A stretch of DNA of 59,281 bases from the NCBI GenBank assembly GCA_021817905.1, contig JAKAFM010000004.1, positions 1-59,281 on the forward strand, given 5' to 3'. The DNA comes from a bacterium (lineage in GTDB: Bacteria; Patescibacteriota; Microgenomatia; UBA12405). Positions 22,159 through 37,225 of the stretch are shown piece by piece. The notes under the pieces are model-generated. The model searched no databases, had not been told where the DNA came from, and saw nothing but the letters and a program-made list of their open reading frames with translations. Within the stretch, counting starts at the first letter, position 1; every line of letters begins with the position of its first letter. The position numbers and the translations under genes were made by a program.

Positions 22159-23172
22159 ATGAGATATAACAAAGGCCTGACTATCGTCACTTTTTTAGTA
22201 GTCTGTTTTGTTGGCTTAAGTATTCTTCTTAAACATTTTAAAGTTGGATCTTACAGATCACAGATGAATGGAATCCGAGTTGGTTGGCAAATTCCGTGGG
22301 CGACTGAAGGGCAATTGGTGCAAGCAATGAAACACAAGAATCTTTTACAAAAACAGAACTTAAACCCGAATTTTATAGGTTTCAGTTCTGGGGCACCACT
22401 AAATGAAGCAGCTCTTTCGGGTAAAGTTGATGTTATTTTAACCGCGGATCAACCCGCAGCAACGTTACTTAACAAAAATTCTGATTGGGTCATTATAGGC
22501 CGTCTGATGTACAACCGTGTATCGTTATATGTCCCTCCCGATTCTCCAATCAAATCTGGAGCAGATTTAAGAGGTAAAACGGTAGCAATGCCTTTTGGTG
22601 CAGCTGCACAAAGGCTTGCATATAAAGTTGAGCAGAATGCTGGTCTTGATCCTAGTAAAGATGTCAAAAATATAAATATTGACATCTATGAACAATCCTC
22701 ATTGATTACAGATAAAAATGCTACAAAGTGGGGAAATATTGATGCGGTGGCTGGATTTGATCCCACCCCCGCTGTTTTGGAAGAAAAAGGACTTATTAGA
22801 AATATTGCTGTAGGTAAAGTGGTCTCAGTTGTGATGATGTCAAAATCGTATATAATTAAAAACCCAAATGCACCAACTGAATTCTTAAGAGCACTTAATA
22901 ATTCATATGTATACTATAAAGCTAATGTTGGTCAGGTTGATCAGTGGTTTAGAGACGAATCTAAGTTAAATGTTAGTTCGAAAGCTCTTGAAATATCAGC
23001 AAGTATTGAACCTAATATGACTCAACCAAATATTAATCTTTCTTTAAACGATGACGACTATCAGGTATTACAACAAGCAGCAGATTTTATTTATTCAGTA
23101 AAACTTATAAATAAAGACGTCACGATGAAGGATTTTGTGAATTTATCCAGTCTAAAAAATGTTAATAACTAA
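22159..23172 (+). CDS. ABC substrate-binding protein, SsuA/TauA/NMT1 family
   Basis: N-terminal anchor; FSSGAPLNEAALSGKVD; SPIKSGADLRGKTVAMPFG; GNIDAVAGFDP. Confidence 0.88.
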   Translation: MRYNKGLTIVTFLVVCFVGLSILLKHFKVGSYRSQMNGIRVGWQIPWATEGQLVQAMKHKNLLQKQNLNPNFIGFSSGAPLNEAALSGKVDVILTADQPAATLLNKNSDWVIIGRLMYNRVSLYVPPDSPIKSGADLRGKTVAMPFGAAAQRLAYKVEQNAGLDPSKDVKNINIDIYEQSSLITDKNATKWGNIDAVAGFDPTPAVLEEKGLIRNIAVGKVVSVVMMSKSYIIKNPNAPTEFLRALNNSYVYYKANVGQVDQWFRDESKLNVSSKALEISASIEPNMTQPNINLSLNDDDYQVLQQAADFIYSVKLINKDVTMKDFVNLSSLKNVNN

Positions 23173-23174
23173 AA

Positions 23175-24305
23175 ATGAAGCAAAATTTGCTACTTATATC
23201 GCTGGATACTTTAAGGGCAGATGTTGCTTATAGTGGTAAATTTAAGACAATTGAAAAACTTCGTTCTTGCAGTGCCACTTTCATAAATACAATATCCTCA
23301 TCTCCCTTGACCCCATGTAGCCATGCCTCAGTTTTTACAGGATTACAACCATATAATCATGGCGTAAGACATTTATTTAAAGAAAAATTAAAAAAAGACA
23401 CAACAACCTTGGCACAAATACTTAAGGAAAATAATTATAAAACTAAAGCTATTATTTCTTGTCCTGGCATGAATAAATGGTATGGTTTTTCTAAGGGCTT
23501 TGATAATTATGATGACGAAATACCTTTACTCGCCGATGGCTCTGATCCTTTGAAAACTATTGATGTCAAAAAACGAGGCACAGCTTTAAAAAGAGCAAGT
23601 GTTGTTACTGAACGAGCGATTAATTGGTTAGAAAAAAACAAAGATGAACAATTTTTTCTCTTTATACATTATTTTGACGCTCATTGGCCGTATGAGGCGC
23701 CAGAAATATATGGTGGTGATAATGCATACGAGAACGAAGTTGCCTATTCAGATCATTATCTAGGTAAAGTCTTTGACTATTTAGAAAAAAATAAACTAAT
23801 GGATAGCACAACTATAGTTTGCTTCTCTGATCATGGCGAGGATTTAAATGGGTGGTATCCAAATGACAAAGGAGGTAAAAAATTAGGCCATCCTGAGGAA
23901 AATGGTCATGGATGCTTGCTTTATAATCAAACACAAAAAGTAGTTTTGATTATTAAAAACCGTATAATTTCAAAAAAGTCTAATTTTAACAATCAGGTTC
24001 GTTTGATAGATGTGTTACCCACTATCCTAGACTTACTTTCAATAAATTCAAAACTTAAGAATATTGATGGAATTAGTTTGCTACCGGTATTACAAAAAAA
24101 GATTAAAGACTCTTATATTGGTTATTCAGAAACTTTCTATCCTGAGGAGCAAGCCAAAACAGAACCTTCACTGAGCTATGTAAAAAACAAAAAAGCTTTC
24201 TTTTTTGATAACGAATTTAAGGTAATAAATAATTTGGATTCCGATTTGCAAGAAGCTTACGATCTTATAAGTGATATTAATGAAAAATATAACCTTATTA
24301 AATGA
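23175..24305 (+). CDS. Sulfatase / alkaline-phosphatase-superfamily enzyme, Thr-type
   Basis: LISLDTLRAD, SPLTPCSHASVFTG, HYFDAHWPY, FSDHGE, HG. Confidence 0.88.
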   Translation: MKQNLLLISLDTLRADVAYSGKFKTIEKLRSCSATFINTISSSPLTPCSHASVFTGLQPYNHGVRHLFKEKLKKDTTTLAQILKENNYKTKAIISCPGMNKWYGFSKGFDNYDDEIPLLADGSDPLKTIDVKKRGTALKRASVVTERAINWLEKNKDEQFFLFIHYFDAHWPYEAPEIYGGDNAYENEVAYSDHYLGKVFDYLEKNKLMDSTTIVCFSDHGEDLNGWYPNDKGGKKLGHPEENGHGCLLYNQTQKVVLIIKNRIISKKSNFNNQVRLIDVLPTILDLLSINSKLKNIDGISLLPVLQKKIKDSYIGYSETFYPEEQAKTEPSLSYVKNKKAFFFDNEFKVINNLDSDLQEAYDLISDINEKYNLIK

Positions 24306-25720
24306 AAATCAATAATTCCGAGAAGTACAACAAAGTCATTTTAATCTCACTTGATACATTAAGAGCAGATTGTGTTCCGTCGAATCCCAATAAACTTTAT
24401 CCTTCTGAATACAAAGCAAAAGTTAAACTTAATGACTCTGAGGTAAATAAATTATTTTCTAAAGGTGTGTTTTTTAATAATGTTGTGTCGGCTGCGCCCT
24501 ACACATCTTCGTCGCATGCAGCATATTTTACAGGCAAATGGCCTATTCGTAACGGGGTTTACGATCAATTTAACAGCAAACTAAAAACTAAAAGTATTTT
24601 TCAAATATACAAACAAAATGGATATGAGACGATTTTTAAAACAGATTTTCCATTCATTCTGGGTAAATATCTTAACATGATAAAGGGTGTAGATAAATAT
24701 TTTATAGAAGACACGCCATCAGCACTCAAAGAACTTAAATCTAAAAAGAAACAACTGGCATTCTTTCATTTCGGACAGTTCCACTATCCATACGGATTCC
24801 ATAATCTTAAATATGGAGGTAAAGATTATGTCAATAAAATAAACTTTTTAGAGAAAAAATATAAAATTCCAACAGACAAAATTAACTTGGAAGATATGGC
24901 TATGGAGTCGTTTAGGTCAAAAGAAGATACTGAGTTGCTTTATAGATATAAAAAGATAATTGCATACCTTTATAAACACAGGTTGGATAATGATCTCTTT
25001 AATCTTTATTTGGAAGGCATTAATTATTTTAATAAAAACTTTTTGGATAAATTTATAAAAGAACTGCTCGAAACTATTAACAATCAAAACTATTTACTAG
25101 TTATATTTTCCGATCACGGGGAGGCATGGAATGATTATTCCTATGGTCATCACAATTCTTTTGATGAAGGAGTTATCAGAGTTCCTATTGTTTTTTACTA
25201 TAAAGGTGTAACTCCAAAATTATATTCAAATAGGGTACGTACAATAGACCTTGCCCCTACACTTAATGATTTATTATCACCAAACAGTAACAGATTTGAT
25301 GGAAAGAGCTTGTATAAAAAAGTATTTGCTGACGAAGAAGATGGTAACCTTGATGCTTTTTCTGCAATTTGGGTAAATGAATCTACTGATGTCATCAAAA
25401 AAGTCAGAACATTAATTGATAAAGACGAACTAACATTTAATAAATCGCTTTCCATAAGATACGGAGCGGCTTACTATCAACAAAATCTAAAATATACTGA
25501 ATACTATAAAAGATTTACAAATCGGTCTGAGGAGTTAAGTGATGTAAAAGAACATGATACTTTTGAAATCACAGACAATCTTAATGTTTTACAGACACAG
25601 AAAAGATTACCAAAATCTATAAAGCAAAATATAAACAAACTTAACAACATAAAATTACAGTCAAACTCCTCACCTGATATTGTGCGTACTTATCTACGTT
25701 TAAGTGGATACAAGGTCTAA
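24302..25720 (+). CDS. Second sulfatase / alkaline-phosphatase-superfamily enzyme, Thr-type
   Basis: LISLDTLRAD, APYTSSSHAAYFTG, HFGQFHYPY, FSDHGE, YGHH, C-terminal LRLSGY. Confidence 0.85.
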   Translation: MKINNSEKYNKVILISLDTLRADCVPSNPNKLYPSEYKAKVKLNDSEVNKLFSKGVFFNNVVSAAPYTSSSHAAYFTGKWPIRNGVYDQFNSKLKTKSIFQIYKQNGYETIFKTDFPFILGKYLNMIKGVDKYFIEDTPSALKELKSKKKQLAFFHFGQFHYPYGFHNLKYGGKDYVNKINFLEKKYKIPTDKINLEDMAMESFRSKEDTELLYRYKKIIAYLYKHRLDNDLFNLYLEGINYFNKNFLDKFIKELLETINNQNYLLVIFSDHGEAWNDYSYGHHNSFDEGVIRVPIVFYYKGVTPKLYSNRVRTIDLAPTLNDLLSPNSNRFDGKSLYKKVFADEEDGNLDAFSAIWVNESTDVIKKVRTLIDKDELTFNKSLSIRYGAAYYQQNLKYTEYYKRFTNRSEELSDVKEHDTFEITDNLNVLQTQKRLPKSIKQNINKLNNIKLQSNSSPDIVRTYLRLSGYKV

Positions 25721-25721
25721 T

Positions 25722-26300
25722 ATGTCAATTACAACTAAAACTATTCTAAAACTGCAGTATGGTGACTTTACGACTTGTTATCACGAAACAAAAACTGGTG
25801 AGTGTATATCTTTAAGTTATGGAGATATAACAAAACCCTTACCTGTTGTTCGAATTCATTCTTCATGTCTTTTTGGTGAATCGTTTTTATCTCTCCATTG
25901 TGAATGTCGGAATCAACTTGAAGAAACACTTAAACAAATTAAGAAAAACGGTTCAGGTGTGATCATATACACATATGCAGAGGGAAGAGGGATTGGTTTA
26001 GAGAAAAAAATAAAAGCAATGGAAGTTCAAAGAACAAAAAATTTGGATACTGTACAGGCATTTGAGTTTTTAGGGCTACAACCAGACCTTAGAACATATA
26101 GCACTGAAGTAACCGCACTTAAAGAGCTTTATGTAAACCGTAATATAAAGCTAGTTTCAAACAATCCAAATAAGATTAATGCCCTAAATAAGGCAGGTTT
26201 TGTTATAAAAAAAATAGTTAAATTAACCATCAAATTAAATGAATACAACTCAAAAGAATTGATAACCAAAAAGACAAAACTAGGCTATTATATTGATTAA
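25722..26300 (+). CDS. ribA: GTP cyclohydrolase II-fold enzyme (RibA-like, Tyr-to-Met variant)
   Basis: VRIHSSC..GE...HCEC zinc triad, EGRGIGL..KIKAM, DLR, SNNPNK. Confidence 0.85.
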   Translation: MSITTKTILKLQYGDFTTCYHETKTGECISLSYGDITKPLPVVRIHSSCLFGESFLSLHCECRNQLEETLKQIKKNGSGVIIYTYAEGRGIGLEKKIKAMEVQRTKNLDTVQAFEFLGLQPDLRTYSTEVTALKELYVNRNIKLVSNNPNKINALNKAGFVIKKIVKLTIKLNEYNSKELITKKTKLGYYID

Positions 26301-27048
26301 AAGTTTTATGAGAAAAAACATATTAGTACTATTATCCGTTTTGATCTTTTGGCAGATATTGGACTACCTTGCCCTTAACCGTAGCGGTCAGTTCACTTCA
26401 CCTTTCAGTCTTATAACATCAATAATTAATACAATTAAGAATGGGGAAATATTATCAGATGCGCTTGCGAGTATCGTACGAGTCTCCATAGGTTTTGTGA
26501 TTGCTACCTTTTTAGCTATCCCATTAGCCCTGATTTCAGAAACCAATAAAATTATGCGCATTTTTATAAATCCCATTATTGAAGTATTACGTCCAATTCC
26601 ACCAATTGCGTGGATACCAATATCCATTATTTTTTTTGGCCTTGGAGATACGTCATCCTATTTTATTGTCTTTTTAGGCTCATTCTTTCCGATATTCAGT
26701 AATACTTATTTGGGCGCTTCGTCATTGCCGACAATATACAAACATATCGCAGAAACGTTTGAATTGAATAAATCAGATTATTACAGAAAGGTGTTATTAA
26801 AGTTTTCCCTTCCTTATATTTTTACTGGATTAAAAATTGGGATTGGAATGGCATGGATGAGTGTAATCGCCTCAGAACTAGTTAGCGGCCAATCTGGACT
26901 GGGGTATTATATTCAGATCAATAGATTACTTCTTAATCTCGATAACGTAATTATTGGGATGGTATTTATTGGTTTTATTGGGATTGTTTTTAATTTTGGT
27001 TTTACTAAACTAGAACGTAAAATGATACCTTGGAGGAAAAAAATATGA
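26293..27048 (+). CDS. ABC permease, SsuC/TauC family
   Basis: LRPIPPIAWIP, LPYIFTGLKIGIGMAWMSVIASEL, SGLGYYI. The start may be 26308. Confidence 0.92.
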   Translation: MIKSFMRKNILVLLSVLIFWQILDYLALNRSGQFTSPFSLITSIINTIKNGEILSDALASIVRVSIGFVIATFLAIPLALISETNKIMRIFINPIIEVLRPIPPIAWIPISIIFFGLGDTSSYFIVFLGSFFPIFSNTYLGASSLPTIYKHIAETFELNKSDYYRKVLLKFSLPYIFTGLKIGIGMAWMSVIASELVSGQSGLGYYIQINRLLLNLDNVIIGMVFIGFIGIVFNFGFTKLERKMIPWRKKI

Positions 27049-27737
27049 TTTTGATAAAAAATTTATCCTATTCTTACGATATGAATACATATCAAACTAT
27101 TAAGGATCTGTCTTTCAATATACAACAAGGTGAGTTTGTTAGTATTTTAGGAAAATCGGGTTGTGGTAAAACGACATTGGCAAATATTATTTGCGGGTAT
27201 TTAAAACCTACAGAAGGGAAAATAGAAATAGATGGAAAAGCAAGTTTTTATCCGAACAAAAATAAAATTATAATAAACCAAGAAGACGATCTGTTTGATT
27301 GGATGACTATTTACCAGAATATGGAAATTGCTACTCAAGACCGAGACTTAATTCTTAAATATCTCCTTCTTGTAAATCTAGAAGATAGAATAAACGAGTA
27401 TCCGTCTAGTTTGTCTGCTGGAATGAAAAAGAAGTTGTCGTTTATAAGGGCCTTATCTGCAAAACCAGATCTGCTTATTCTTGATGAACCATTTTCGTAT
27501 TTGGACTATTCCACAAAAGCCGAGCTTCTTAAACAGTTTCAAAGAATTATTAAATCATCTAATACTACGACGATCTTAATCACCCACAACATAGACGAAT
27601 CTTTATATTTATCGGATAGAATAATAGTTTTAAAAGGTTATCCGTTTAAAATTTCTAAAGATATTAGATTGGATAGCAAGAAGATTAAAGGACATGCGAT
27701 GGCTAGTTTGGTTGATGACATCAAAAAATCATACTAA
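27045..27737 (+). CDS. ABC ATP-binding protein, SsuB/TauB family
   Basis: GKSGCGKTT, signature LSAGMKKK, LILDEPFSYLD, ITHNIDE. ATGA overlap with the permease stop. Confidence 0.92.
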   Translation: MILIKNLSYSYDMNTYQTIKDLSFNIQQGEFVSILGKSGCGKTTLANIICGYLKPTEGKIEIDGKASFYPNKNKIIINQEDDLFDWMTIYQNMEIATQDRDLILKYLLLVNLEDRINEYPSSLSAGMKKKLSFIRALSAKPDLLILDEPFSYLDYSTKAELLKQFQRIIKSSNTTTILITHNIDESLYLSDRIIVLKGYPFKISKDIRLDSKKIKGHAMASLVDDIKKSY

Positions 27738-27754
27738 CTTTGGTATAATCGCTT

Positions 27755-28741
27755 ATGGACAAAATATTTCCAGAAAAGCTTAAACAAGGTGATGAGGTAC
27801 GAATTATCACTCCTTCTAGATCTTTGGCAATAATTAGCAAAGAGAACAGAGAAAATGGAAACAAAAGATTTGCTGAATTGGGGCTAAAACTTTCATTTGG
27901 AAAACACGCGGAAGAAATTGATGATTTTGTTTCCTCATCAATTAAATCGAGAATAGAAGATTTACATAATGCTTTTTCTGACGAAAATGTTAAAGCCATT
28001 TTGACTGTAATTGGAGGATTTAATTCCAACCAACTTTTGAAATACATTGACTGGAATTTAATAAAAAATAACCCAAAAATCTTTTGTGGATTTTCTGATA
28101 TTACAGCTCTAAATAATGCAATTTTTGCAAAGACTAGCCTTGTTACATATTCTGGACCATTTTATTCAACTTTTGGACAAAAATTATATTTTGACTACAC
28201 CCTGGATTACTTCAAAAAATGTTTGATGTCAGAGGAATCTTTTGAGGTAAAGCCAAGCGATAATTGGAGCGAAGATGTGTGGTATAAGGATCAGAACAAC
28301 AGAAAGTTAGTTCAAAATCCAGGCTGGGTGATAATAAATGAAGGAAAAGCCGAAGGGACAATACTTGGTGATAATTTGTGTACTTTTAACTTACTCCAAG
28401 GAACGGAGTATTTTCCCGATTTATCCAATTCGATTCTATTTATCGAGGATGATGAAGAATCAGCCCCTCATAATTTTGACAGAGATTTACAGTCATTAAT
28501 TCATCTTCCGAATTTTCATAAAGTTAAAGGGATTGTGATAGGAAGATTCCAAAAAGCCAGCGAAATGACAAACGACCTGTTAATTCAAATTATAAAGTCT
28601 AAGAAAGAGTTAAATAATATTCCAGTGATTGCAAATTTGGACTTTGGTCATACAGATCCCAAAATGACTTTCCCGATCGGGGGAAATGTAAAAATATCCG
28701 CATCTAACTTAAAAGTTTCTATTATTATAACTAGCCACTAG
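27755..28741 (+). CDS. S66 peptidase (MccF / LD-carboxypeptidase family)
   Basis: IGGFNSNQLL; Ser in GFSDIT, Glu in FIEDD, His in DFGHTDP; Trp-containing loop NWSEDVWY. Has its own TATAAT 5 nt before the ATG. Confidence 0.9.
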   Translation: MDKIFPEKLKQGDEVRIITPSRSLAIISKENRENGNKRFAELGLKLSFGKHAEEIDDFVSSSIKSRIEDLHNAFSDENVKAILTVIGGFNSNQLLKYIDWNLIKNNPKIFCGFSDITALNNAIFAKTSLVTYSGPFYSTFGQKLYFDYTLDYFKKCLMSEESFEVKPSDNWSEDVWYKDQNNRKLVQNPGWVIINEGKAEGTILGDNLCTFNLLQGTEYFPDLSNSILFIEDDEESAPHNFDRDLQSLIHLPNFHKVKGIVIGRFQKASEMTNDLLIQIIKSKKELNNIPVIANLDFGHTDPKMTFPIGGNVKISASNLKVSIIITSH

Positions 28742-29207: not shown

Positions 29208-29340
29208 TAATAAAATATTTTATGATGTGTTTGAAGTGTCTTCTTTATCTTAATATTATGAGCATACTATTCTTACGAGTTATACTCACAGTAGCAGTGG
29301 TAAAGTTATCATTATTATAGGTAGTATATAGAGAATGGTT

Positions 29341-29427
29341 TTATATACATACCCGATGTGTAATATACATTATAGGCTCTTTAATTATTGATTTAAAGAC
29401 TCAAAAGAGGTAGAATGGCGGATATGA
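29341..29427 (+). repeat. Conserved upstream/promoter block, copy 1 (copy 2 at 35131-35217)
   Basis: Identical 26-nt run TGTAATATACATTATAGGCTCTTTAA at 29359 and 35149. Both copies end GGTA(G/C)AATGGCGGATATGA. Confidence 0.85.
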
Positions 29428-30992
29428 ATGATGGAGAGAAGCTTATTCGTAAATTGTTAGTAGCTGCAACGTTAACAAGTGGTTTGGCGGCATGTGCTCC
29501 CCAACCCAAGGCAGCAACTCCAGAAATTGTTGGAGGAACGGTGACTCCGGTACCTAGTGCCACGGCTCCAGAAACAGCAACAGTAACTGCCAGCGGCACT
29601 CCCCAGGGTTTAGAGATCAGTCCGACGGTGGCTGCCTTAACGGCCACTCCTGAGTCAATAGAAACAGCCACTACAGTACCAAAGGCTTCGTTGGGAGCAG
29701 TGGAAGTTTTAGGAGCTGGTGATTCAACGATGCTGGGAATGGTTGATCAGGCCAGCTTACAAAAGATAGCTGAAAAGATGGGTCCGGGGGTCATTGTTTA
29801 CTTAAAGGCTGGAGTGCCAAGTGGAACAATTGAACAAGTGGGGAGTAACTATCAGGGAGTGATTACCCAAGTTCCCCAAGAGATAATGGTTACTGGGATA
29901 AGCTACTCTTTAAATCTGTCCAATAGTACTCCCTCTAAAGTAGTGGGGGCAGAGTATGTCTCGGCTGAGGGAAAGAAAATCACTTTGGATAATCAATGGT
30001 TAGCAAGCGGATTAAACTCGGCAGTGGATATAGTATATTATTTTCAAGATCAAAAGAACCCTGACCAGATAAAGGCAGGATTATTACTGAAGAATGGAGA
30101 GGTGGTAAAGGGGAATATTGATAAAGTGAAGGAGGCAGTAGATGTGGTTTCCGTTGACCAAATGGAGCCAATCGATGCCTCTAAAAACCCAGAAAAAATT
30201 GCGGCATTACCAGTCAAAACAGCGGTGGAAGCGTGGGTAAAGGGAAAAATCAGACCAGGAGTCGATCAAGGTATAACTAATGTAAATGCTACAAAATATA
30301 AAGATGGAACAGTAAGATTTGGTGTTATTGATACTGAGGACAATGTTATAAAGGGACAATTGTTAGCTACAAATGATTACATGCCGGCTATTATATTGGG
30401 ATTAGATAAAGCGACTGGTAATGGAATTGAAAATGTGGCGCTCGGAATAACGAGGAAAAACTTACAAGGAGAAGATGTTCAAATTGTACTACGGGTTCCT
30501 TTTGATACTTTTATGGACGTTGGTTATGTTGATAATAAGATAGATGCTTCGTCAAGAAAAAATATTACTGACAGGGCAGCATTTTCTGCTGTTTTAGATA
30601 CAAAAGTTGGTTCGGTGGCTTTAGTCGGCTATCTACGAAAATTTGTACCCGGGGTATTTTTAAATGTAATTGAAGTTAAAAAGGTAAATACATCATATAT
30701 TGATAATGATCCAACTATGCAAAAAGAACCGGAAGATGTGCGTAATTGGGCTAAATTGATGCTCATACTTGATGCAAATGCAGGTAAAGATGTTTCTGGT
30801 TACACAGTTCCAGTTTTGATTGATAAGGCACAAAAACAAGTACAACAATATAAAACATTTGATTTACTTTCAGGATTTTTTACTGGAAAAACGGACAAAA
30901 TTCCTGATGGAGATATTATTTTACCAAATTCAACGGTAACAAAGCTTAATTTGAAAAATATCAGTATTGCTGTTCCACACGAAGGTTCATAA
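29415..30992 (+). CDS. Cassette 1 lipoprotein: conserved N-terminal domain plus unique C-terminal domain
   Basis: Lipobox GLAAC and Ala/Thr/Pro linker. The segment IETAT...NGEVVKGN is homologous to 35205-36644. The start may be 29424. Confidence 0.8.
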   Translation: MADMNDGEKLIRKLLVAATLTSGLAACAPQPKAATPEIVGGTVTPVPSATAPETATVTASGTPQGLEISPTVAALTATPESIETATTVPKASLGAVEVLGAGDSTMLGMVDQASLQKIAEKMGPGVIVYLKAGVPSGTIEQVGSNYQGVITQVPQEIMVTGISYSLNLSNSTPSKVVGAEYVSAEGKKITLDNQWLASGLNSAVDIVYYFQDQKNPDQIKAGLLLKNGEVVKGNIDKVKEAVDVVSVDQMEPIDASKNPEKIAALPVKTAVEAWVKGKIRPGVDQGITNVNATKYKDGTVRFGVIDTEDNVIKGQLLATNDYMPAIILGLDKATGNGIENVALGITRKNLQGEDVQIVLRVPFDTFMDVGYVDNKIDASSRKNITDRAAFSAVLDTKVGSVALVGYLRKFVPGVFLNVIEVKKVNTSYIDNDPTMQKEPEDVRNWAKLMLILDANAGKDVSGYTVPVLIDKAQKQVQQYKTFDLLSGFFTGKTDKIPDGDIILPNSTVTKLNLKNISIAVPHEGS

Positions 30993-31034
30993 AGCATTGT
31001 TATCGAGCGGAATATATTATATTCTTACATATAT

Positions 31035-31631
31035 ATGTTCCGGAAGGTTATGGTTTTCGTTGTCGTTCTAGTTGTTGGATTTGTTGTTTATTGGCTATTT
31101 TCTTCACCTTCAAAACATACTAATGCTCAAATAAATGATTGTAATGGTCAGTTTGCTTTAGACAAAACTGTAAAGTCTTGTGGTTTGGTTAGCTTGTCAA
31201 ATAATACTACTAATTATTATGTTGGAATATTAAAGTCTGTAAGAAAAAGTGGTACAAGTTATTATTTGGATCTTGATGTTGGTAGAGTTATTCCGCTTAG
31301 TTTCTTAATATTTGATTCTATAGGGGTTCATACTGGCAGTGATGTAAAATCACCCACAATCATTAAGGCAGACATAATTGCTCAACTTAAGCCGTATATT
31401 GGTCAAAAAATAACATTACTTTCCCCAAATGGAAAGAGTTTTGCGAGTGTATTGAATTCTCTTTTACCAAAAATTCCGCTTACTCAGTCTATTGGGGTAA
31501 GAAATATGATAGGCTATTTAAATCAGTGTGATGGTGAAATGTCAGAAATGAAGACGGGGGATGTAGTTTATACTTATGGTTTTTTAAAAACCGGCTGTAA
31601 TCTACTGGTAAATGATATATATGTTAACTAA
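31035..31631 (+). CDS. Cassette 1 small membrane-anchored protein
   Basis: Single N-terminal TM, 198 aa, four Cys; overlaps the start of the next gene. Confidence 0.75.
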   Translation: MFRKVMVFVVVLVVGFVVYWLFSSPSKHTNAQINDCNGQFALDKTVKSCGLVSLSNNTTNYYVGILKSVRKSGTSYYLDLDVGRVIPLSFLIFDSIGVHTGSDVKSPTIIKADIIAQLKPYIGQKITLLSPNGKSFASVLNSLLPKIPLTQSIGVRNMIGYLNQCDGEMSEMKTGDVVYTYGFLKTGCNLLVNDIYVN

Positions 31632-34600
31632 GTTTGTAAGATTTGGGTTAGTATTTTTATTTTTTCTATTTTTATTTAAATTGTCTGTTTTTGCAAGTTA
31701 TTGTTCTGGAAAAACTACCTGGAATAATAGTTATAATACTTGCGACAGTCTTGGATATGGGGGTTATGTATATTGTAATAGTCATTCGTCTGGTCAATCG
31801 GCTAGCTGTGGAGGTACTAGTACAAATTGTGGTTCATTTGTAATGATTTGTTCTGACTCGTGCAGTGTTAACCAGAGTCAAACGGCGTGTAATATAACTA
31901 GTAATGGATGTGTTCAAAATTGGCAATCATCAAATTGCAGTTCGTGTACTTCAAACTGCAGTAATCCTGGTTCTCATTGCGGTAGTTTTTCTGATGGTTG
32001 CGGAGGATGGTGTACTGGAACACTGACGTGTACTGGTGGCCAAACATGTCAAAACGATAGCTGCGCTTGCCCAAGTGGACAATGTACTGTAAATGGGCAA
32101 TGTACGGCACCTAGCTGTGGTTCGTGGGGTTCGTGTTCAACGGGGTGTGGCAATCATACCCAAACAAGAACAGAAGTCTGCGGAGGCTGCGGTGGGGTTT
32201 TGTCACAGGGTTGCGGGGCCTGCACCGAATGCCAGACCTGCACCCGACAGTGTGGTCAGAGTAAAGATTGTGGAGGCAGCTGTGCCCAAGGTTATGAATG
32301 TACCAATCCCCTGGCGCCGACTAACCCGATTCCTAACAATGCCACTAGTTCACCTTTGGTAATCGCGACTCCAAATATTACTTTACAGTGGAGCGATCCG
32401 GCCAACACGGCTCCGCCTTATAATTTTGATAATTTTGTAGTTAGTGCTGACGGGGCGGTGGTGGGAACATTACCAAACACTCAACATAGTTTTCTTTTCC
32501 CGGCGTCGGGAAGTATGGTTGGTAACCATAAGTATGGCTGGACCGTACAGACGTACAAGGCTGCAAATTGTAATGGTTTGGGATGTGGGGCTAATGGCTA
32601 TAGTCCGGCGGTGGGAGGCTATTTTTGTTACCAAGTGACTCCGGGGGCACCGACCATGGCTAATGGCAATGGAGTAAGCGCCAGTAGCCCGTATGGTTTT
32701 CCGAACACGACCACGGCAAATTTAACTTGGAATTTGGATGAAACTAATCACAGTGCCACGATTAAATATGAAGTGCAAGTGCTTGATTCGTCGGGGAGCA
32801 CGATTTTAGCTTCAACAACAACGACCAATGCAACGATTAACACCTATAGTTTCACTGGTTCTAAGGGGGTGGTCTATAGTTGGAAGGTGCGAGCACTTTC
32901 AACTTCCTGTACCGGAGTGGCATTGCAAGGCCCATGGACAACTGGTTACTTTATCTTTGCAACGCCGCCGATTTTTAATGACTTTAATATTTATAGTGTG
33001 ACGGATACGATGACTAACGGTTATCATGATGGGTCGTTGGTGGCACCTCAAAATACCAGCATTGGTTTTAGTGGAAACCAGATTTGTCAGCAGCCATTCC
33101 AAATGTCAACACACCCGCGAAGTGTTTCGTTTCGAGTAGGGGTCGTTGATAATAGTGGTATTACTAGTATTTCAGAAATTGACATGAGGTTTGTTAACCG
33201 GAGTACCGGGACAGTTTACACTACGGCGAAATTAACTGGTATGGATACGGGTAGTCTTGCTTACAGCTCAACACCCAACATTGGACTTACTTTCTATGAG
33301 ACGCCACACACGATTACGGTAGGGACAACCGAAGTTCAAGCGATTTTCCCATTAACTTTTCCTGATAACTTTAATCCTTTAAATTATGAAATTAATGTTT
33401 GGGCAGTAGATAAATATGGGTTGACAATTGTTAATGGCGGAGGGTCAACACCTGTCCCGCCGGCAACTACCTGTACGGGAATTATGTATTACCTCAGTCC
33501 AGCTTCGCCGGAAAATCCTAATACATCGGTTAATGTTAATATTGACCGGTCAACAGCAACCAGTTGTAGCGGAAATTGGAATAATGTGGGCTTTTTGCTT
33601 GACGGAGTGTCACTGCCGGGAGGGTCGATAGGTTATCTGGACGGCTCAAATACTGGCAGTGGTTATCATTGGCCGATAAATAGTGGTGCGGTTGGAACTC
33701 ATACCATTCAATTTACGGTAAACAACGGAGCTTGTACGTGTAATCCAAATTACTTTTTAACCGTGTCACCGCTGACAGCTGATGGCTGGGTTGATGCTAA
33801 TCGAACCTTTAAATCATGGAGTTGTGCCGTGGCAGTATCGGGTGATGTTTACGATGCCAGTGCCTATTCCTTTACTGACCTGACCAGTTGTTTGAGCAGT
33901 ATTTACACCCCAACCAACTTGTATAGCCAAAACCCGAGTATGTTTAAGACACTGGATTGGCAACAGAACGGAACTAGTTCGAACACCAGTACGACAATTA
34001 GTAATATTTCCCATTATGTAGTTAACGTTGGCTTGACTTGGGGATATCAATATTTGCCACTTTTTAATGCCGATAGCGATATGCCGGGATTAAACCAACA
34101 TATGCGGGTATCAGATACTGGAACCAATGGGGCACCATCACCAGTAACGAATCTTTGTTGGGCGAGTAGTTTTAGTCCATCAATTTTGGATTTGCGAGGG
34201 GCAGTTGGAAGTCAATTTGTGGTCAATCCTTATGCGGATAATCCCAGCGCACAAGTTGACTTTGCGGGAATTAGGAATCAGGATCCATGGTTTCAAGCGG
34301 TTGGCGGTGGAATCCAATCGGATGGAGTGTTGCATAGTGCGGTGCCCGTAACTTGTAGTGTCAGTAATGCCTCAACTCCAGGGAGTTGTTTGCCGGCATT
34401 ATCGATTAGCAGTGCCGGTAATTTGGATAGCGGGGTGGTTACCGGTAAGAGTGGAATTACTAATACTAATGGTTGTGCCACCAACCAATGCTTCAACGGC
34501 TACCCTTCACCAGACCGAAACTGGAGTGTTGCTGGCGCTAATGTTTCAACTGTGGCTAGTGTGGACTATAACAAACTTATTAATCAACTGTATTACCAAT

Positions 34601-35061
34601 CGGGTATTGGATCGACGATGATTTTCAACAGTAATCCCAGTGCTAATACCAATGCCTGGCAAACTATTATTGCGGATCCTAATTATGCCCATCAAGTTTT
34701 GTTTATTGATACTTTAGGCCAGGGATTAACGATTTCTAGTGACTTGACGCTACCGGCTAATTCGTATTCAGTCATGGTGGTTAATGGTGATATTACCGTT
34801 GACCCATCAGTTTCCCGACTGGATGGTATCCTGGTCTCTACGGGAACTATTGCTATCGGAGGGAAAGCTCCCACCGATAATCAACTGGTCATCAACGGAT
34901 CATTGTTTGGCAAGACACTTTCGTTTACCAGAAGCTATACGACGGCTTCTCTTAATAATACCCAACCGGCAGTAAAGATTAACTACCAACCGGGATACAT
35001 GATATTATTACCTCAGAAAGTATTTAGAAATGTGGGCGCTTGGTCACAGGGAGCGCAGTAA
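31621..35061 (+). CDS. Cassette 1 large Cys-rich secreted surface protein (putative adhesin)
   Basis: Signal peptide, Cys-rich N-terminus with TSP1-like WGSCSTGCGNHTQTR, two FN3-like beta domains, and a C-terminal domain shared with 37227-40220. Confidence 0.8.
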   Translation: MLTKFVRFGLVFLFFLFLFKLSVFASYCSGKTTWNNSYNTCDSLGYGGYVYCNSHSSGQSASCGGTSTNCGSFVMICSDSCSVNQSQTACNITSNGCVQNWQSSNCSSCTSNCSNPGSHCGSFSDGCGGWCTGTLTCTGGQTCQNDSCACPSGQCTVNGQCTAPSCGSWGSCSTGCGNHTQTRTEVCGGCGGVLSQGCGACTECQTCTRQCGQSKDCGGSCAQGYECTNPLAPTNPIPNNATSSPLVIATPNITLQWSDPANTAPPYNFDNFVVSADGAVVGTLPNTQHSFLFPASGSMVGNHKYGWTVQTYKAANCNGLGCGANGYSPAVGGYFCYQVTPGAPTMANGNGVSASSPYGFPNTTTANLTWNLDETNHSATIKYEVQVLDSSGSTILASTTTTNATINTYSFTGSKGVVYSWKVRALSTSCTGVALQGPWTTGYFIFATPPIFNDFNIYSVTDTMTNGYHDGSLVAPQNTSIGFSGNQICQQPFQMSTHPRSVSFRVGVVDNSGITSISEIDMRFVNRSTGTVYTTAKLTGMDTGSLAYSSTPNIGLTFYETPHTITVGTTEVQAIFPLTFPDNFNPLNYEINVWAVDKYGLTIVNGGGSTPVPPATTCTGIMYYLSPASPENPNTSVNVNIDRSTATSCSGNWNNVGFLLDGVSLPGGSIGYLDGSNTGSGYHWPINSGAVGTHTIQFTVNNGACTCNPNYFLTVSPLTADGWVDANRTFKSWSCAVAVSGDVYDASAYSFTDLTSCLSSIYTPTNLYSQNPSMFKTLDWQQNGTSSNTSTTISNISHYVVNVGLTWGYQYLPLFNADSDMPGLNQHMRVSDTGTNGAPSPVTNLCWASSFSPSILDLRGAVGSQFVVNPYADNPSAQVDFAGIRNQDPWFQAVGGGIQSDGVLHSAVPVTCSVSNASTPGSCLPALSISSAGNLDSGVVTGKSGITNTNGCATNQCFNGYPSPDRNWSVAGANVSTVASVDYNKLINQLYYQSGIGSTMIFNSNPSANTNAWQTIIADPNYAHQVLFIDTLGQGLTISSDLTLPANSYSVMVVNGDITVDPSVSRLDGILVSTGTIAIGGKAPTDNQLVINGSLFGKTLSFTRSYTTASLNNTQPAVKINYQPGYMILLPQKVFRNVGAWSQGAQ
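34873..35059 (+). repeat. Near-identical 3' end of the large surface genes, copy 1 (copy 2 at 40032-40218)
   Basis: 59-nt exact match between 34873-34931 and 40032-40090, then mostly synonymous differences to the stop. Confidence 0.9.
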
Positions 35062-35130
35062 AGAATCGTATTATAAGATGGTAAATAATAATATTTGTTA
35101 GGTATTTTAGACGGTATATACGGATATACT

Positions 35131-35217
35131 TTATCTACATATTTGATATGTAATATACATTATAGGCTCTTTAAATATTGATTTAGAAGCCTAAAAGGGG
35201 TACAATGGCGGATATGA
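35131..35217 (+). repeat. Conserved upstream/promoter block, copy 2
   Basis: Aligns without gaps to 29341-29427 at an offset of 5790 nt. Confidence 0.85.
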
Positions 35218-36644
35218 GTAATGTGGATCGTGATAGCTCACCTAAGCCCCTGACTAAAATATCCAGAAGGGATTTTTTAAGAATTGGGATGGTAGCAGGC
35301 GCCGGGACAGTATTAGCGGCTTGTGAAGCAGTCCAGAAAAAAATTACTCCAGTGGCTCAATTCATAGATACGGCTACTCCAAAAGCATCAGCAACTGAAA
35401 AAGCATCAGCAACTCCTCAGCCAGCAGCATCAGCAACCGCAGCAAAAGTCATAGAAACAGCCACTCCAGTACCAACCGCTTCTTTGGGAGCAGTGGAAGT
35501 TTTAGGAGCTGGTGATTCAACACCACTAGGGATAGTTGATCAGGCAAGCTTACAAACAATAACGGAAAAGATGGGAGCCGGAGTGACGGTCTATTTGGAA
35601 GCTGATAAACCAAGTGGGACTATTGCCCAAGCAGGAAATGACTATCAAGGAACTATTTCACAAGTGCCAAAGGAGCTAATGGTTAAAGGGATAAAGTATG
35701 CTTTACAGTTATCAAACACACCATCAAAGACACCCGGGATTAACTATCTGTCAACTGATGGGAAGAATACCTCATTAACACTAGACAATCAGTGGGGAGG
35801 TTCTGGTTTGAACGCAGCTGTGAAGACAGTTTTCTTATATCAAACAACCGATAAACCAGATGAAGTTCTGGCAGCAATTGCTTTAAATAATGGAGAGGTG
35901 GTTAAGGGGAATAGTAATAAAGTGAGAGAGGGGCAAGCTACAGCTGAGGCGACAGCGGTAACAGAATTTACGAATGCGCAATTGAGTGAGATATTGTCTC
36001 ACAAAGATGAACATGGTTATTTTAATGACCCACACTGGGTTGAGGCATTACAACAAATTACAGCTCCATTAGGGGGAAAGGATGCTTTAACTTGGATAAA
36101 GAATATAAATACCTTAGCTAAACCAAATTTTGATAATGATGCGTGGTTGAAGGTTAAAGGAAAAAGTAGAAATTTTGGTGGTTATACGCCGGTTAAGTTT
36201 GATACACCTGGAGTTTATTACAATGCAGATGGCGTTACTCCCGTTGGATTTGTTGGTAACATAGAAGGTTTAGTGAAAGGTATGGATACTAAATTAGGTG
36301 GTATTGATAATAATTATGGCGGAATGTTAGTATCGTTTAGTAAAGATGATATGGTGCATACGCTGGTCTTTGCTCCTGATTCTTTTGGAATAAATAATAT
36401 TTCTTTTTTTGATGCAAATAAGCAGAAATATGTACCTGATCGTGATATCCAGAACATGATGAACTTGTACAAAAGTATTGGTGATATTTTGCTTAACAAA
36501 CCTTGTTATGTCATTGCTACCGGTAGAGGAATGATTCCGATCTTACATGAGATTGTTATGGCTTCTCAAGTACAAGCAATAACAGGAGTAGACTTAAAGG
36601 AACTTAAGGATAGGTATGGAGTGTCCACACATATACGTGAGTAA
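35205..36644 (+). CDS. Cassette 2 lipoprotein with twin-arginine leader: conserved N-terminal domain plus unique C-terminal domain
   Basis: ISRRDFLR, lipobox VLAAC, KASAT repeats. 38-nt exact match between 35484-35521 and 29691-29728. Confidence 0.8.
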   Translation: MADMSNVDRDSSPKPLTKISRRDFLRIGMVAGAGTVLAACEAVQKKITPVAQFIDTATPKASATEKASATPQPAASATAAKVIETATPVPTASLGAVEVLGAGDSTPLGIVDQASLQTITEKMGAGVTVYLEADKPSGTIAQAGNDYQGTISQVPKELMVKGIKYALQLSNTPSKTPGINYLSTDGKNTSLTLDNQWGGSGLNAAVKTVFLYQTTDKPDEVLAAIALNNGEVVKGNSNKVREGQATAEATAVTEFTNAQLSEILSHKDEHGYFNDPHWVEALQQITAPLGGKDALTWIKNINTLAKPNFDNDAWLKVKGKSRNFGGYTPVKFDTPGVYYNADGVTPVGFVGNIEGLVKGMDTKLGGIDNNYGGMLVSFSKDDMVHTLVFAPDSFGINNISFFDANKQKYVPDRDIQNMMNLYKSIGDILLNKPCYVIATGRGMIPILHEIVMASQVQAITGVDLKELKDRYGVSTHIRE

Positions 36645-36688
36645 TCGTTGAGTTGTGGTGAGTGTAGATAAAATTATATACTGTTTAG

Positions 36689-37225
36689 ATGAAGCTTTAT
36701 TTTGTCGGGGCTGTGGTTGTAATAATTATTGCCATGTCTTTGTTTGTGGCTTCTCGGTTTTCAAATGATGGTTCTCAAATAATTTATCAGACTACTGGTT
36801 TGAGGTCCTATGATTTGGGTGGAGTGGGAATTTTAAAAAATGCCAATGGGGTTCCTTATTTATTTAAAGGGTTTCTTGAAAGTTGGAATGTTGACGGTAA
36901 CGGAGACATTGTAGTTAAGGCAAGTAGCGGATCTGGGCAAACATTTGAAGGGGTCGTAAAATTGAATCCCAATTTAGGTTTTCAGACACTCTTATTTGAT
37001 GAACAACTGACAAGGTTATTAAACAGCCCGTATGAGATGACCAAAATGGGTAAAATGAGCGATTTGAGCAGGAGCCAGTTAGTCGGAATTTTGAAAACGG
37101 GCCGTTTTATGGCTTTTGGATATGCTCTTCAATTAATAAACAATACCAACGTGAACATTATTATGGAAAACGACAGGCCGGTGATTCGCACTTGTTATAT
37201 TAGAAGTTATGGTAAATTGTTATAG
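36689..37225 (+). CDS. Cassette 2 small membrane-anchored protein
   Basis: Single N-terminal TM, 178 aa. Same position as 31035-31631 but no similarity visible by eye. Confidence 0.75.
   Translation: MKLYFVGAVVVIIIAMSLFVASRFSNDGSQIIYQTTGLRSYDLGGVGILKNANGVPYLFKGFLESWNVDGNGDIVVKASSGSGQTFEGVVKLNPNLGFQTLLFDEQLTRLLNSPYEMTKMGKMSDLSRSQLVGILKTGRFMAFGYALQLINNTNVNIIMENDRPVIRTCYIRSYGKLL

Follow-up and report, generated by a model that had tools for sequence, protein, structure and literature searches.

The stretch analysed here, referred to as the window (contig JAKAFM010000004.1 of assembly GCA_021817905.1, 59,281 nucleotides (nt)), contains two copies of a repeated unit of three genes. They encode a lipoprotein, a small membrane-anchored protein and a secreted protein of 1,000–1,150 amino acids (aa), and a shared upstream region precedes them. 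Comparison with relatives of the unit showed that families of the C-terminal lipoprotein domain, here called the tip, have repeatedly been moved into genomes of Anaerolineaceae, where they stand behind host leaders and where the small gene was mostly lost. The window genome (817 kb, 31 contigs, 97% complete) belongs to a Candidatus Shapirobacteria-type family of the Patescibacteria. The organism is likely an epibiotic parasite, and we infer that Anaerolineae are its hosts.

For most Patescibacteria the hosts, the determinants of host range and the host defences are unknown. The exchange described below provides a marker, as recent and repeated gene transfer ties genomes of the Shapirobacteria type to Anaerolineaceae, and the significance of the findings is carried more by this exchange and by the arrays in the hosts than by the mechanism proposed for them. 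According to its main text, in which the terms "lipoprotein" and "Shapiro" do not occur, a recent report describes a cultured member of the Microgenomatia as a host-specific ectoparasite of a Chloroflexota (Aggregatilineaceae) host (10.64898/2026.06.21.733656). Pili in the candidate phyla radiation are treated in PMC6744442. The literature search, which left most subscription papers out of reach, yielded no account of this three-gene cassette or of hosts that had captured it.

Exchange with Anaerolineaceae genomes

Profile comparison merged the C-terminal groups X, Y and V of the relatives into one family, XYV (E 2e-5 and 1.8e-4), and the groups Z and W into another, ZW (E 6e-6). When all species genomes were scanned with the X alignment, seven loci were obtained, three of them titled Anaerolineaceae, flanked by host-type genes of higher GC content. 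Family XYV was detected in 12 of 251 Anaerolineaceae genomes (18 matches), and three further matches in two more genomes were reached by way of the locus. Locus L116 showed 95% DNA identity to locus L054 of the parasite family over 1,016 bp. This shared stretch begins in the Pro/Thr linker and reaches the small gene; the leader of L116 differs from that of L054, and host-like DNA lies on both sides.

Parasite and host copies interleave in an unrooted tree of 20 rows, and a clade of the parasite copies was rejected (approximately unbiased test, p-AU 1.6e-41). The GC content at third codon positions (GC3) of the host copies lies between 0.23 and 0.45, in comparison to 0.50–0.69 in seven flanking genes. 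This parasite-like composition indicates a transfer from parasite to host; because the tree is unrooted, the direction is deduced from composition and from the membership of the small gene in the operon. Furthermore, the nonsynonymous polymorphism (pN) was lower than the synonymous polymorphism (pS) in all nine pairs of host copies checked.

No trace of the small gene was found behind 16 of the 21 host copies of XYV, a few of which lie at contig ends. Among the remaining five, the gene is whole in one case, has an altered end in another, is cut short in two and is interrupted by a stop in one. The corresponding small family S2 was present in 3/251 Anaerolineaceae genomes, two of which supplied query genes, and gave solid matches only beside a lipoprotein; no solid case of an orphan small gene occurred in the 251 genomes. 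The large protein was found in 2/251.

A second tip family was found in hosts as well. It occurs in a whole triad of the parasite type in G350, an Anaerolineaceae-family genome on a single contig of 3.52 Mb, beside genes for ParA and an integrase. About 25 kb away from this triad, four lipoproteins stand under one host leader and are followed by a truncated small gene; three of these four are approximately 60% identical to the tip of the triad. In G308, a lipoprotein with a parasite leader and a remnant of the large-protein gene were found in a low-GC island. The low-GC element of G350 adjoins a tad-like pilus cluster and is a possible vehicle of gene flow between parasite and host. A further locus, L114, comes from a record titled gammaproteobacterium; its contig is identical at the match to locus L058 of family f1, and the title looks mislabelled.

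Acquired interbacterial defence arrays are tandem collections of orphan immunity genes. The Anaerolineaceae arrays resemble them in that non-producers stockpile variant genes of an antagonist in tandem near mobile elements. They differ in that the stockpiled part is the tip of the upstream lipoprotein, joined to a host leader, and in that the genes come from an epibiont that belongs to a different phylum.

Organisation of the unit and its switch points

A preliminary description of the window had reported two lipoproteins, LpA and LpB, which align up to a motif NGEVVKGNxxKV with nearly identical DNA at this junction and continue into unrelated domains, each followed by a different membrane-anchored protein of 178–198 aa. 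All of these statements held. Residues 1–240 of LpA align with LpB at 51% identity (BLASTP, E 4e-66), this alignment ends at the motif, and the DNA at 30093-30129 and 35889-35925 differs at three of 37 positions. The C-terminal domains (285 and approximately 238 aa) showed no similarity by BLASTP or by profile-profile comparison (probability 0.33%), and the small proteins SmA (198 aa) and SmB (178 aa) likewise showed none by BLASTP or profile comparison. The two-gene pairs of that description are real, but the repeat also comprises the shared upstream region and the large third gene.

The nucleotide identity of lpA and lpB varies along the part before the junction: it amounts to 83–89% at aa 85–120 and to 83% at aa 230–241, with 50–69% between. 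Identity is thus highest where the middle domain begins and where it ends, also at third codon positions, a pattern that fits crossover tracts. From the sequence, the NGEVVKGN tract is read as the end of a domain that probably doubles as a crossover site rather than as a cleavage motif.

A third triad is located on contig C17 of the window genome. It lies before leuS, and an open reading frame resembling an insertion sequence transposase (L001:4349-5032, function read by eye) is found upstream. LpC has a leader of the LpA type and a different middle domain, and BigC is 76% identical to BigA past residue 112, whereas the tip and the small gene differ. The upstream region of unit A matches that of the C17 unit at 81% identity (186 nt) and that of unit B at 88% (89 nt). 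BigA and BigB share 59% identity across the last 433 columns.

Diversity of homologs that begins at a fixed boundary, proposed as a check in the preliminary description, was observed in P0003 and in the relatives L048/L057 and L038/L074. P0003 has a middle domain of the LpA/LpB type and a C-terminus weakly similar to that of LpC (25% in the alignment; phmmer E 3e-4 in a set of 63), and P0002 matches LpB over its full length. Protein searches gave four matches for LpB, and LpC matched itself alone. When the C-termini of LpC and P0003 were compared with 1.84 billion representatives, only both queries and one marginal match of 30 residues were returned. Locus scans with the middle domain of the window proteins or with alignment A1 revealed no relative in metagenome and genome collections or in 40 related genomes.

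As a check of the assembly only, contigs from four of four sequencing runs of one study, possibly the one from which the window derives, were inspected; they span both junctions without a differing letter, and a misassembly is thus unlikely. In addition, loose contig ends at about half depth carry this upstream region followed, in translation, by the beginning of P0003. Judging from these ends of 30 bases, variants of the P0003 type may coexist with the window units in one community. Contigs in G084, G087, G088, G090, G097, G057 and G071 often start or stop inside the gene of the large protein, which would be expected of a locus that is multi-copy or variable in the population.

Table 1. Positions of the features discussed. 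Coordinates refer to the window unless a locus or contig is given.
Feature	Position	Strand	Description
Upstream region, unit A	29244..29414	+	conserved ahead of each of the three lipoprotein genes; likely a shared promoter; repeat D4
LpA, 525 aa	29415..30992	+	lipobox LAAC (Cys27), Pro/Thr-rich linker, then two domains
LpA, middle domain	~29658-30134	+	
LpA, unique C-terminal domain	30135-30992	+	
Junction tract A (NGEVVKGNIDKV)	30090..30135	+	end of middle domain; repeat D6, 87% over 46 nt
SmA, 198 aa	31035..31631	+	one membrane anchor at the N-terminus; 20-nt overlap with the start of BigA
BigA, 1149 aa	31612..35061	+	secreted, Cys-rich; conserved C-terminus (34069-35058 modelled)
Upstream region, unit B	35103..35204	+	copy of the likely shared promoter region; repeat D4, 79% over 121 nt
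LpB, 479 aa	35205..36644	+	twin-arginine leader SRRDFL and lipobox LAAC (Cys40), linker
LpB, middle domain	~35451-35930	+	followed by a C-terminal domain common only to LpB and P0002
Junction tract B (NGEVVKGNSNKV)	35886..35931	+	partner of tract A in LpB
SmB, 178 aa	36689..37225	+	one membrane anchor at the N-terminus; 17-nt overlap with the start of BigB
BigB, 1003 aa	37209..40220	+	paralogue of BigA; N-terminal half divergent, C-terminus conserved
Third triad: LpC 552 aa, SmC 227 aa, BigC 1231 aa	L001:5904-11945 (G000:C17:8903-14944)		
G350 triad	L164:9677-13394 and L165:479-1702		located in a low-GC element that also carries genes resembling those of ParA, Rep and integrases
Slot proteins with motifs taken to be papain-like	L034:5388-6521, L068:5523-6479, L091:5247-6203		

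Pilus context, slot proteins and small gene

The C-terminus of the large protein was present in 76/104 genomes of the family and in 87/111 genomes of the order. In 80 regions of relatives, a PilX-like gene directly follows the gene of the large protein in 61 of 84 rows, and among the first 47 rows there are 22 with pilin genes upstream of the unit; the assignments are supported by matches to PilX_N and N_methyl (Pfam). In the relatives, the triad is thus located within a type IV minor-pilin operon. The window genome has its pilin operon on contig C24, with a PilW-like gene directly before a PilX-like gene, and its three triads elsewhere.

Type IV pilus-associated beta-solenoid proteins include ComZ of Thermus and the tapirins of Caldicellulosiruptor. 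A model of the C-terminus of the large protein (39 rows; predicted local distance difference test (pLDDT) 72) placed ComZ (6qvi) first in Foldseek (E 0.023), with a Z score of 10.0 over 213 aligned residues (root-mean-square deviation 4.2), in a tie at the same Z with ice-binding beta-solenoids (DUF3494); the tapirins scored 4.0–4.9. The C-terminus of BigA is therefore predicted to be a ComZ/tapirin-like beta-solenoid and, because of this fold and of its operon position, the large protein is predicted to be an adhesin at the tip of a type IV pilus. It has in common with ComZ and the tapirins the predicted fold and, in the relatives, the position in a pilus operon, but it differs from them by a separate PilX-like gene that follows and by a variable, Cys-rich N-terminus of 500–1,500 aa; no prepilin motif was detected on the large protein.

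The position before the adhesin gene, which is occupied by the gene of an orphan secreted protein, is here called the slot. Slot lipoproteins comprise 280–800 aa and are multi-domain. Among 56 slot proteins examined, 11 have a twin-arginine leader and four a C-terminal LPxV motif, which we take to be typical of Chloroflexota; a regular expression detected a lipobox-like motif in 29. The match of LpB to TAT_signal (22.6 bits) lies just under the cut-off of 22.7. No match for TatC was found in the window genome, and TatC occurred in 8 of 104 genomes of the family; for ten of the 11 twin-arginine slot proteins, the genome was searched and gave no TatC match, and the genome of the eleventh lay outside the search. 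Export by a host would be needed for these leaders. Full-length TatC is carried by G042, G002, G066, G067, G069, G021, G082 and G102, patchily across six genera; its presence is presumably unusual in this group. Two more orphan proteins with twin-arginine leaders are encoded in the window genome (G000:C3:12352-13260 and C16:6804-7490).

Neither LpA nor LpB matched a family of Pfam, NCBIfam or PADLOC above the cut-off, and no toxin family was identified by Pfam in 34 slot proteins of relatives or in the two of the window. In the relatives' slot proteins, Cu_amine_oxidN1 was found twice and Peptidase_M14 once (L070), and M23-like domains occur in 3/28 small proteins. The slot proteins of L034, L068 and L091 combine twin-arginine leaders and C-terminal LPxV with Gln/Cys and His motifs, which we take to be papain-like; no Pfam or NCBIfam enzyme matched them. 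In genus g8, the slot proteins L035, L066, L080 and L095 have Sec-type leaders, two of them with Cu_amine_oxidN1, a domain that is presumably common in surface proteins of Clostridia. In this genus, the type of leader may reflect hosts from another phylum.

The window tips were modelled poorly in the Atlas (pLDDT 0.31–0.32), with no usable match there for either. The X domain gave a confident model (pLDDT 92.9), in which invariant residues are almost only the structural P, F and P. No clear fold match was obtained for it (best Z 3.5, with OB-like rows), which is not proof of a new fold, and searches of PDB sequences with the alignments A1 and A7 gave no match below E 0.1.

The small gene was compared in 41 loci that contain both genes, with roles and family labels assigned by hand. 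Before the pair counts, loci with a contig end or without a recognisable slot gene upstream of the adhesin gene were left out (six loci and one row without upstream genes); elsewhere, 20 of 37 rows were taken as pairs. In 38/41 loci, the small gene either overlaps with the adhesin gene or directly adjoins it, and in 35/41 it lies 15–80 bp behind the lipoprotein gene. Its coupling is with the adhesin gene rather than with the lipoprotein gene. Loci with the same C-terminal family had the same small family in 53 of 60 pairs, those with different C-terminal families in 20 of 760, so that the co-variation expected in the preliminary description is present with exceptions; since the loci are kin and linked, this count is no independent test. 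XYV is combined with small family S2 in 9/9 cases and ZW with S1 in 6/7, and one single small family is paired with C-termini that are less than 20% identical. Recurrent swaps kept the N-terminal part and changed the C-terminus together with the small gene (L048 in comparison to L052/L057; L038 in comparison to L074). A grouping of SmA, SmC and L036 into one family because of shared Cys motifs was rejected (profile probabilities <8%).

Possible function of the lipoprotein

By analogy with phages, we tentatively prefer to regard both units as copies of a three-gene surface cassette that can be swapped, and in which the lipoprotein might be a strain-specific, Llp-like exclusion factor that hosts have captured. 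The small protein and the variable N-terminus of the adhesin would recognise the host. The lipoprotein would reach the host envelope, with the twin-arginine types exported by the host machinery, and would mask there the same receptor on the occupied host, or the small protein; further parasites with a matching tip would be kept from attaching. Hosts that capture lipoprotein tips would keep them as borrowed resistance. With somewhat less confidence, it may be supposed that superinfection exclusion is part of the pilus-tip operon of these epibionts: an occupied host would be marked by a lipoprotein that the host exports and whose tip can be exchanged, and Anaerolineae would capture such tips by recombination at the Pro/Thr linker into lipoprotein arrays of their own. 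This would be an acquired, strain-specific immunity against parasitic bacteria, and host genomes would thereby preserve a record of earlier pairings of parasite and host. The extracytoplasmic location assumed in the preliminary description is supported; the pairs may act there as ligand and receptor, as that description also proposed. The hypervariable pilus-tip locus is a candidate determinant of specificity, and captured tips make the prediction of hosts testable.

In phages T5 and BF23, the gene llp for a receptor-blocking lipoprotein adjoins the receptor-binding gene (oad/hrs), and both form one module (PMC4728585). The units share with it a lipoprotein gene beside a host-recognition gene, modular exchange and non-homologous lipoproteins in the same slot. 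The lipoprotein gene is adjacent to genes of host recognition and is exchanged together with them, the recognition role of the large protein being predicted. Different from the phage module, the carrier is a cell, the lipoprotein comprises 280–800 aa and several domains, a small membrane protein lies in between, the gene was apparently captured by hosts, and the blocking of a receptor is proposed by analogy. The likeness is proposed as an analogy and not as membership; with regard to homology to phage Llp or Cor, scans against Pfam and NCBIfam gave no match above the cut-off. If exclusion applies, the cassette would be a module for superinfection exclusion, similar to those of phages but carried by a cellular parasite, together with a defence against parasitic bacteria by gene capture.

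Several observations weigh against exclusion by a host-borne lipoprotein. The C-terminus of LpA was found in none of 401 Anaerolineae genomes, alignment A1 matched 60/401, nearly all in the leader only, and the three tips of the window genome were not found in hosts or in wider collections; the link to the hosts therefore runs via the shared slot and not via the sequence. The window genome encodes Lgt and has a weak match for LspA, and Sec-type lipoproteins such as LpA could thus remain on the parasite. The enzyme-like slot proteins (L070; L034/L068/L091) fit toxins better. Exceptions from the pairing are L095, L070 and L068/L091, and linkage and kinship alone can yield the co-variation of C-terminus and small gene.

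The preliminary description had interpreted the pairs as toxin and immunity proteins. A conserved N-terminus, a junction motif, a variable C-terminus and an adjacent immunity gene are the layout of the polymorphic toxins CdiA and Rhs. The units agree with such toxins in the conserved N-terminal part, the sharp switch, the variable C-terminus, the co-varying small gene downstream and the extracytoplasmic location. Lipobox toxins with membrane or OB-fold (oligonucleotide/oligosaccharide-binding) immunity proteins are described (PMC12419801). A polymorphic toxin against rival epibionts, which harms other Patescibacteria, is neutralised by the small protein as immunity protein and is stolen by hosts as a parasite-specific toxin, would also accommodate the hydrolase-like slot proteins, and it explains the retention by hosts without the small gene, the target being specific to the parasite. 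We consider it unlikely, even if it is the strongest competitor of exclusion. No toxin family was detected in the 36 scanned slot proteins, and the well-modelled X domain lacks invariant residues other than almost exclusively structural ones. The small gene is coupled to the pilus adhesin, one small family serves highly dissimilar C-termini, in the first set a small gene is missing after 7 of 37 slot proteins, and no orphan modules or arrays of tip and immunity genes were seen in the parasite loci examined. A toxin tip should not be kept without its immunity gene, and orphan immunity genes should occur; for XYV in Anaerolineaceae, the reverse was observed, although a parasite-specific toxin would escape this argument. 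Hosts that keep the "toxin" and drop the "immunity" argue against this polarity, and tips that multiply while the small gene decays are the opposite of a collection of orphan immunity genes. A classical toxin–immunity polarity is not supported. If the lipoprotein were a toxin, hosts would steal anti-parasite weapons. Both exclusion and a toxin can be tested because a co-culture of Microgenomatia and Chloroflexota has been reported.

It is rather doubtful that the lipoprotein stays on the parasite as a surface adhesin or host mimic that aids the pilus tip in recognising the host, with the captured host copies acting as decoys or as surface variation. The presence of Lgt, the position within the pilus-tip locus and the similarity of the leaders to lipoprotein leaders of Anaerolineae fit this role, as do the leaders of genus g8 with Cu_amine_oxidN1. 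It is opposed by the twin-arginine leaders without a TatC match and by the separate promoter of the lipoprotein gene with a gap before the small gene and the adhesin gene, and the host arrays are not explained by it alone.

A hypervariable pilus-tip locus that recombines in blocks, which alone would make its neighbouring genes co-vary, with host copies as mere passengers of DNA flow from attached parasites, would agree with the swap of blocks together with the small gene and the N-terminus of the adhesin, and with the whole triad and the adhesin remnant that also reached hosts. Such linkage and drift are improbable, as the host copies stand behind host leaders, are open, show pN < pS and occur in arrays while the small genes decay, and as the adhesin was found in 2/251 genomes in comparison to 12/251 for one tip family.

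Tir and intimin form a pair in which the receptor is planted by the bacterium itself. By analogy, a lipoprotein planted on the host for docking via the small protein would suit the host-type export leaders, the cognate small membrane protein and the pilus context, but it is highly improbable: selection should remove a docking site of this kind from the hosts, which instead retain the tips and even carry them in several copies, whereas their small genes are decaying.

Just upstream of the two units, window positions 22159-28741 form a low-GC block (0.30–0.35), which is probably a separate acquired island. Its genes encode, as read by eye, a substrate-binding protein of an ATP-binding cassette (ABC) transporter, two sulfatase-like proteins, a GTP cyclohydrolase II-like protein and an ABC permease/ATPase; an S66 LD-carboxypeptidase (Pfam) is also located within this block.

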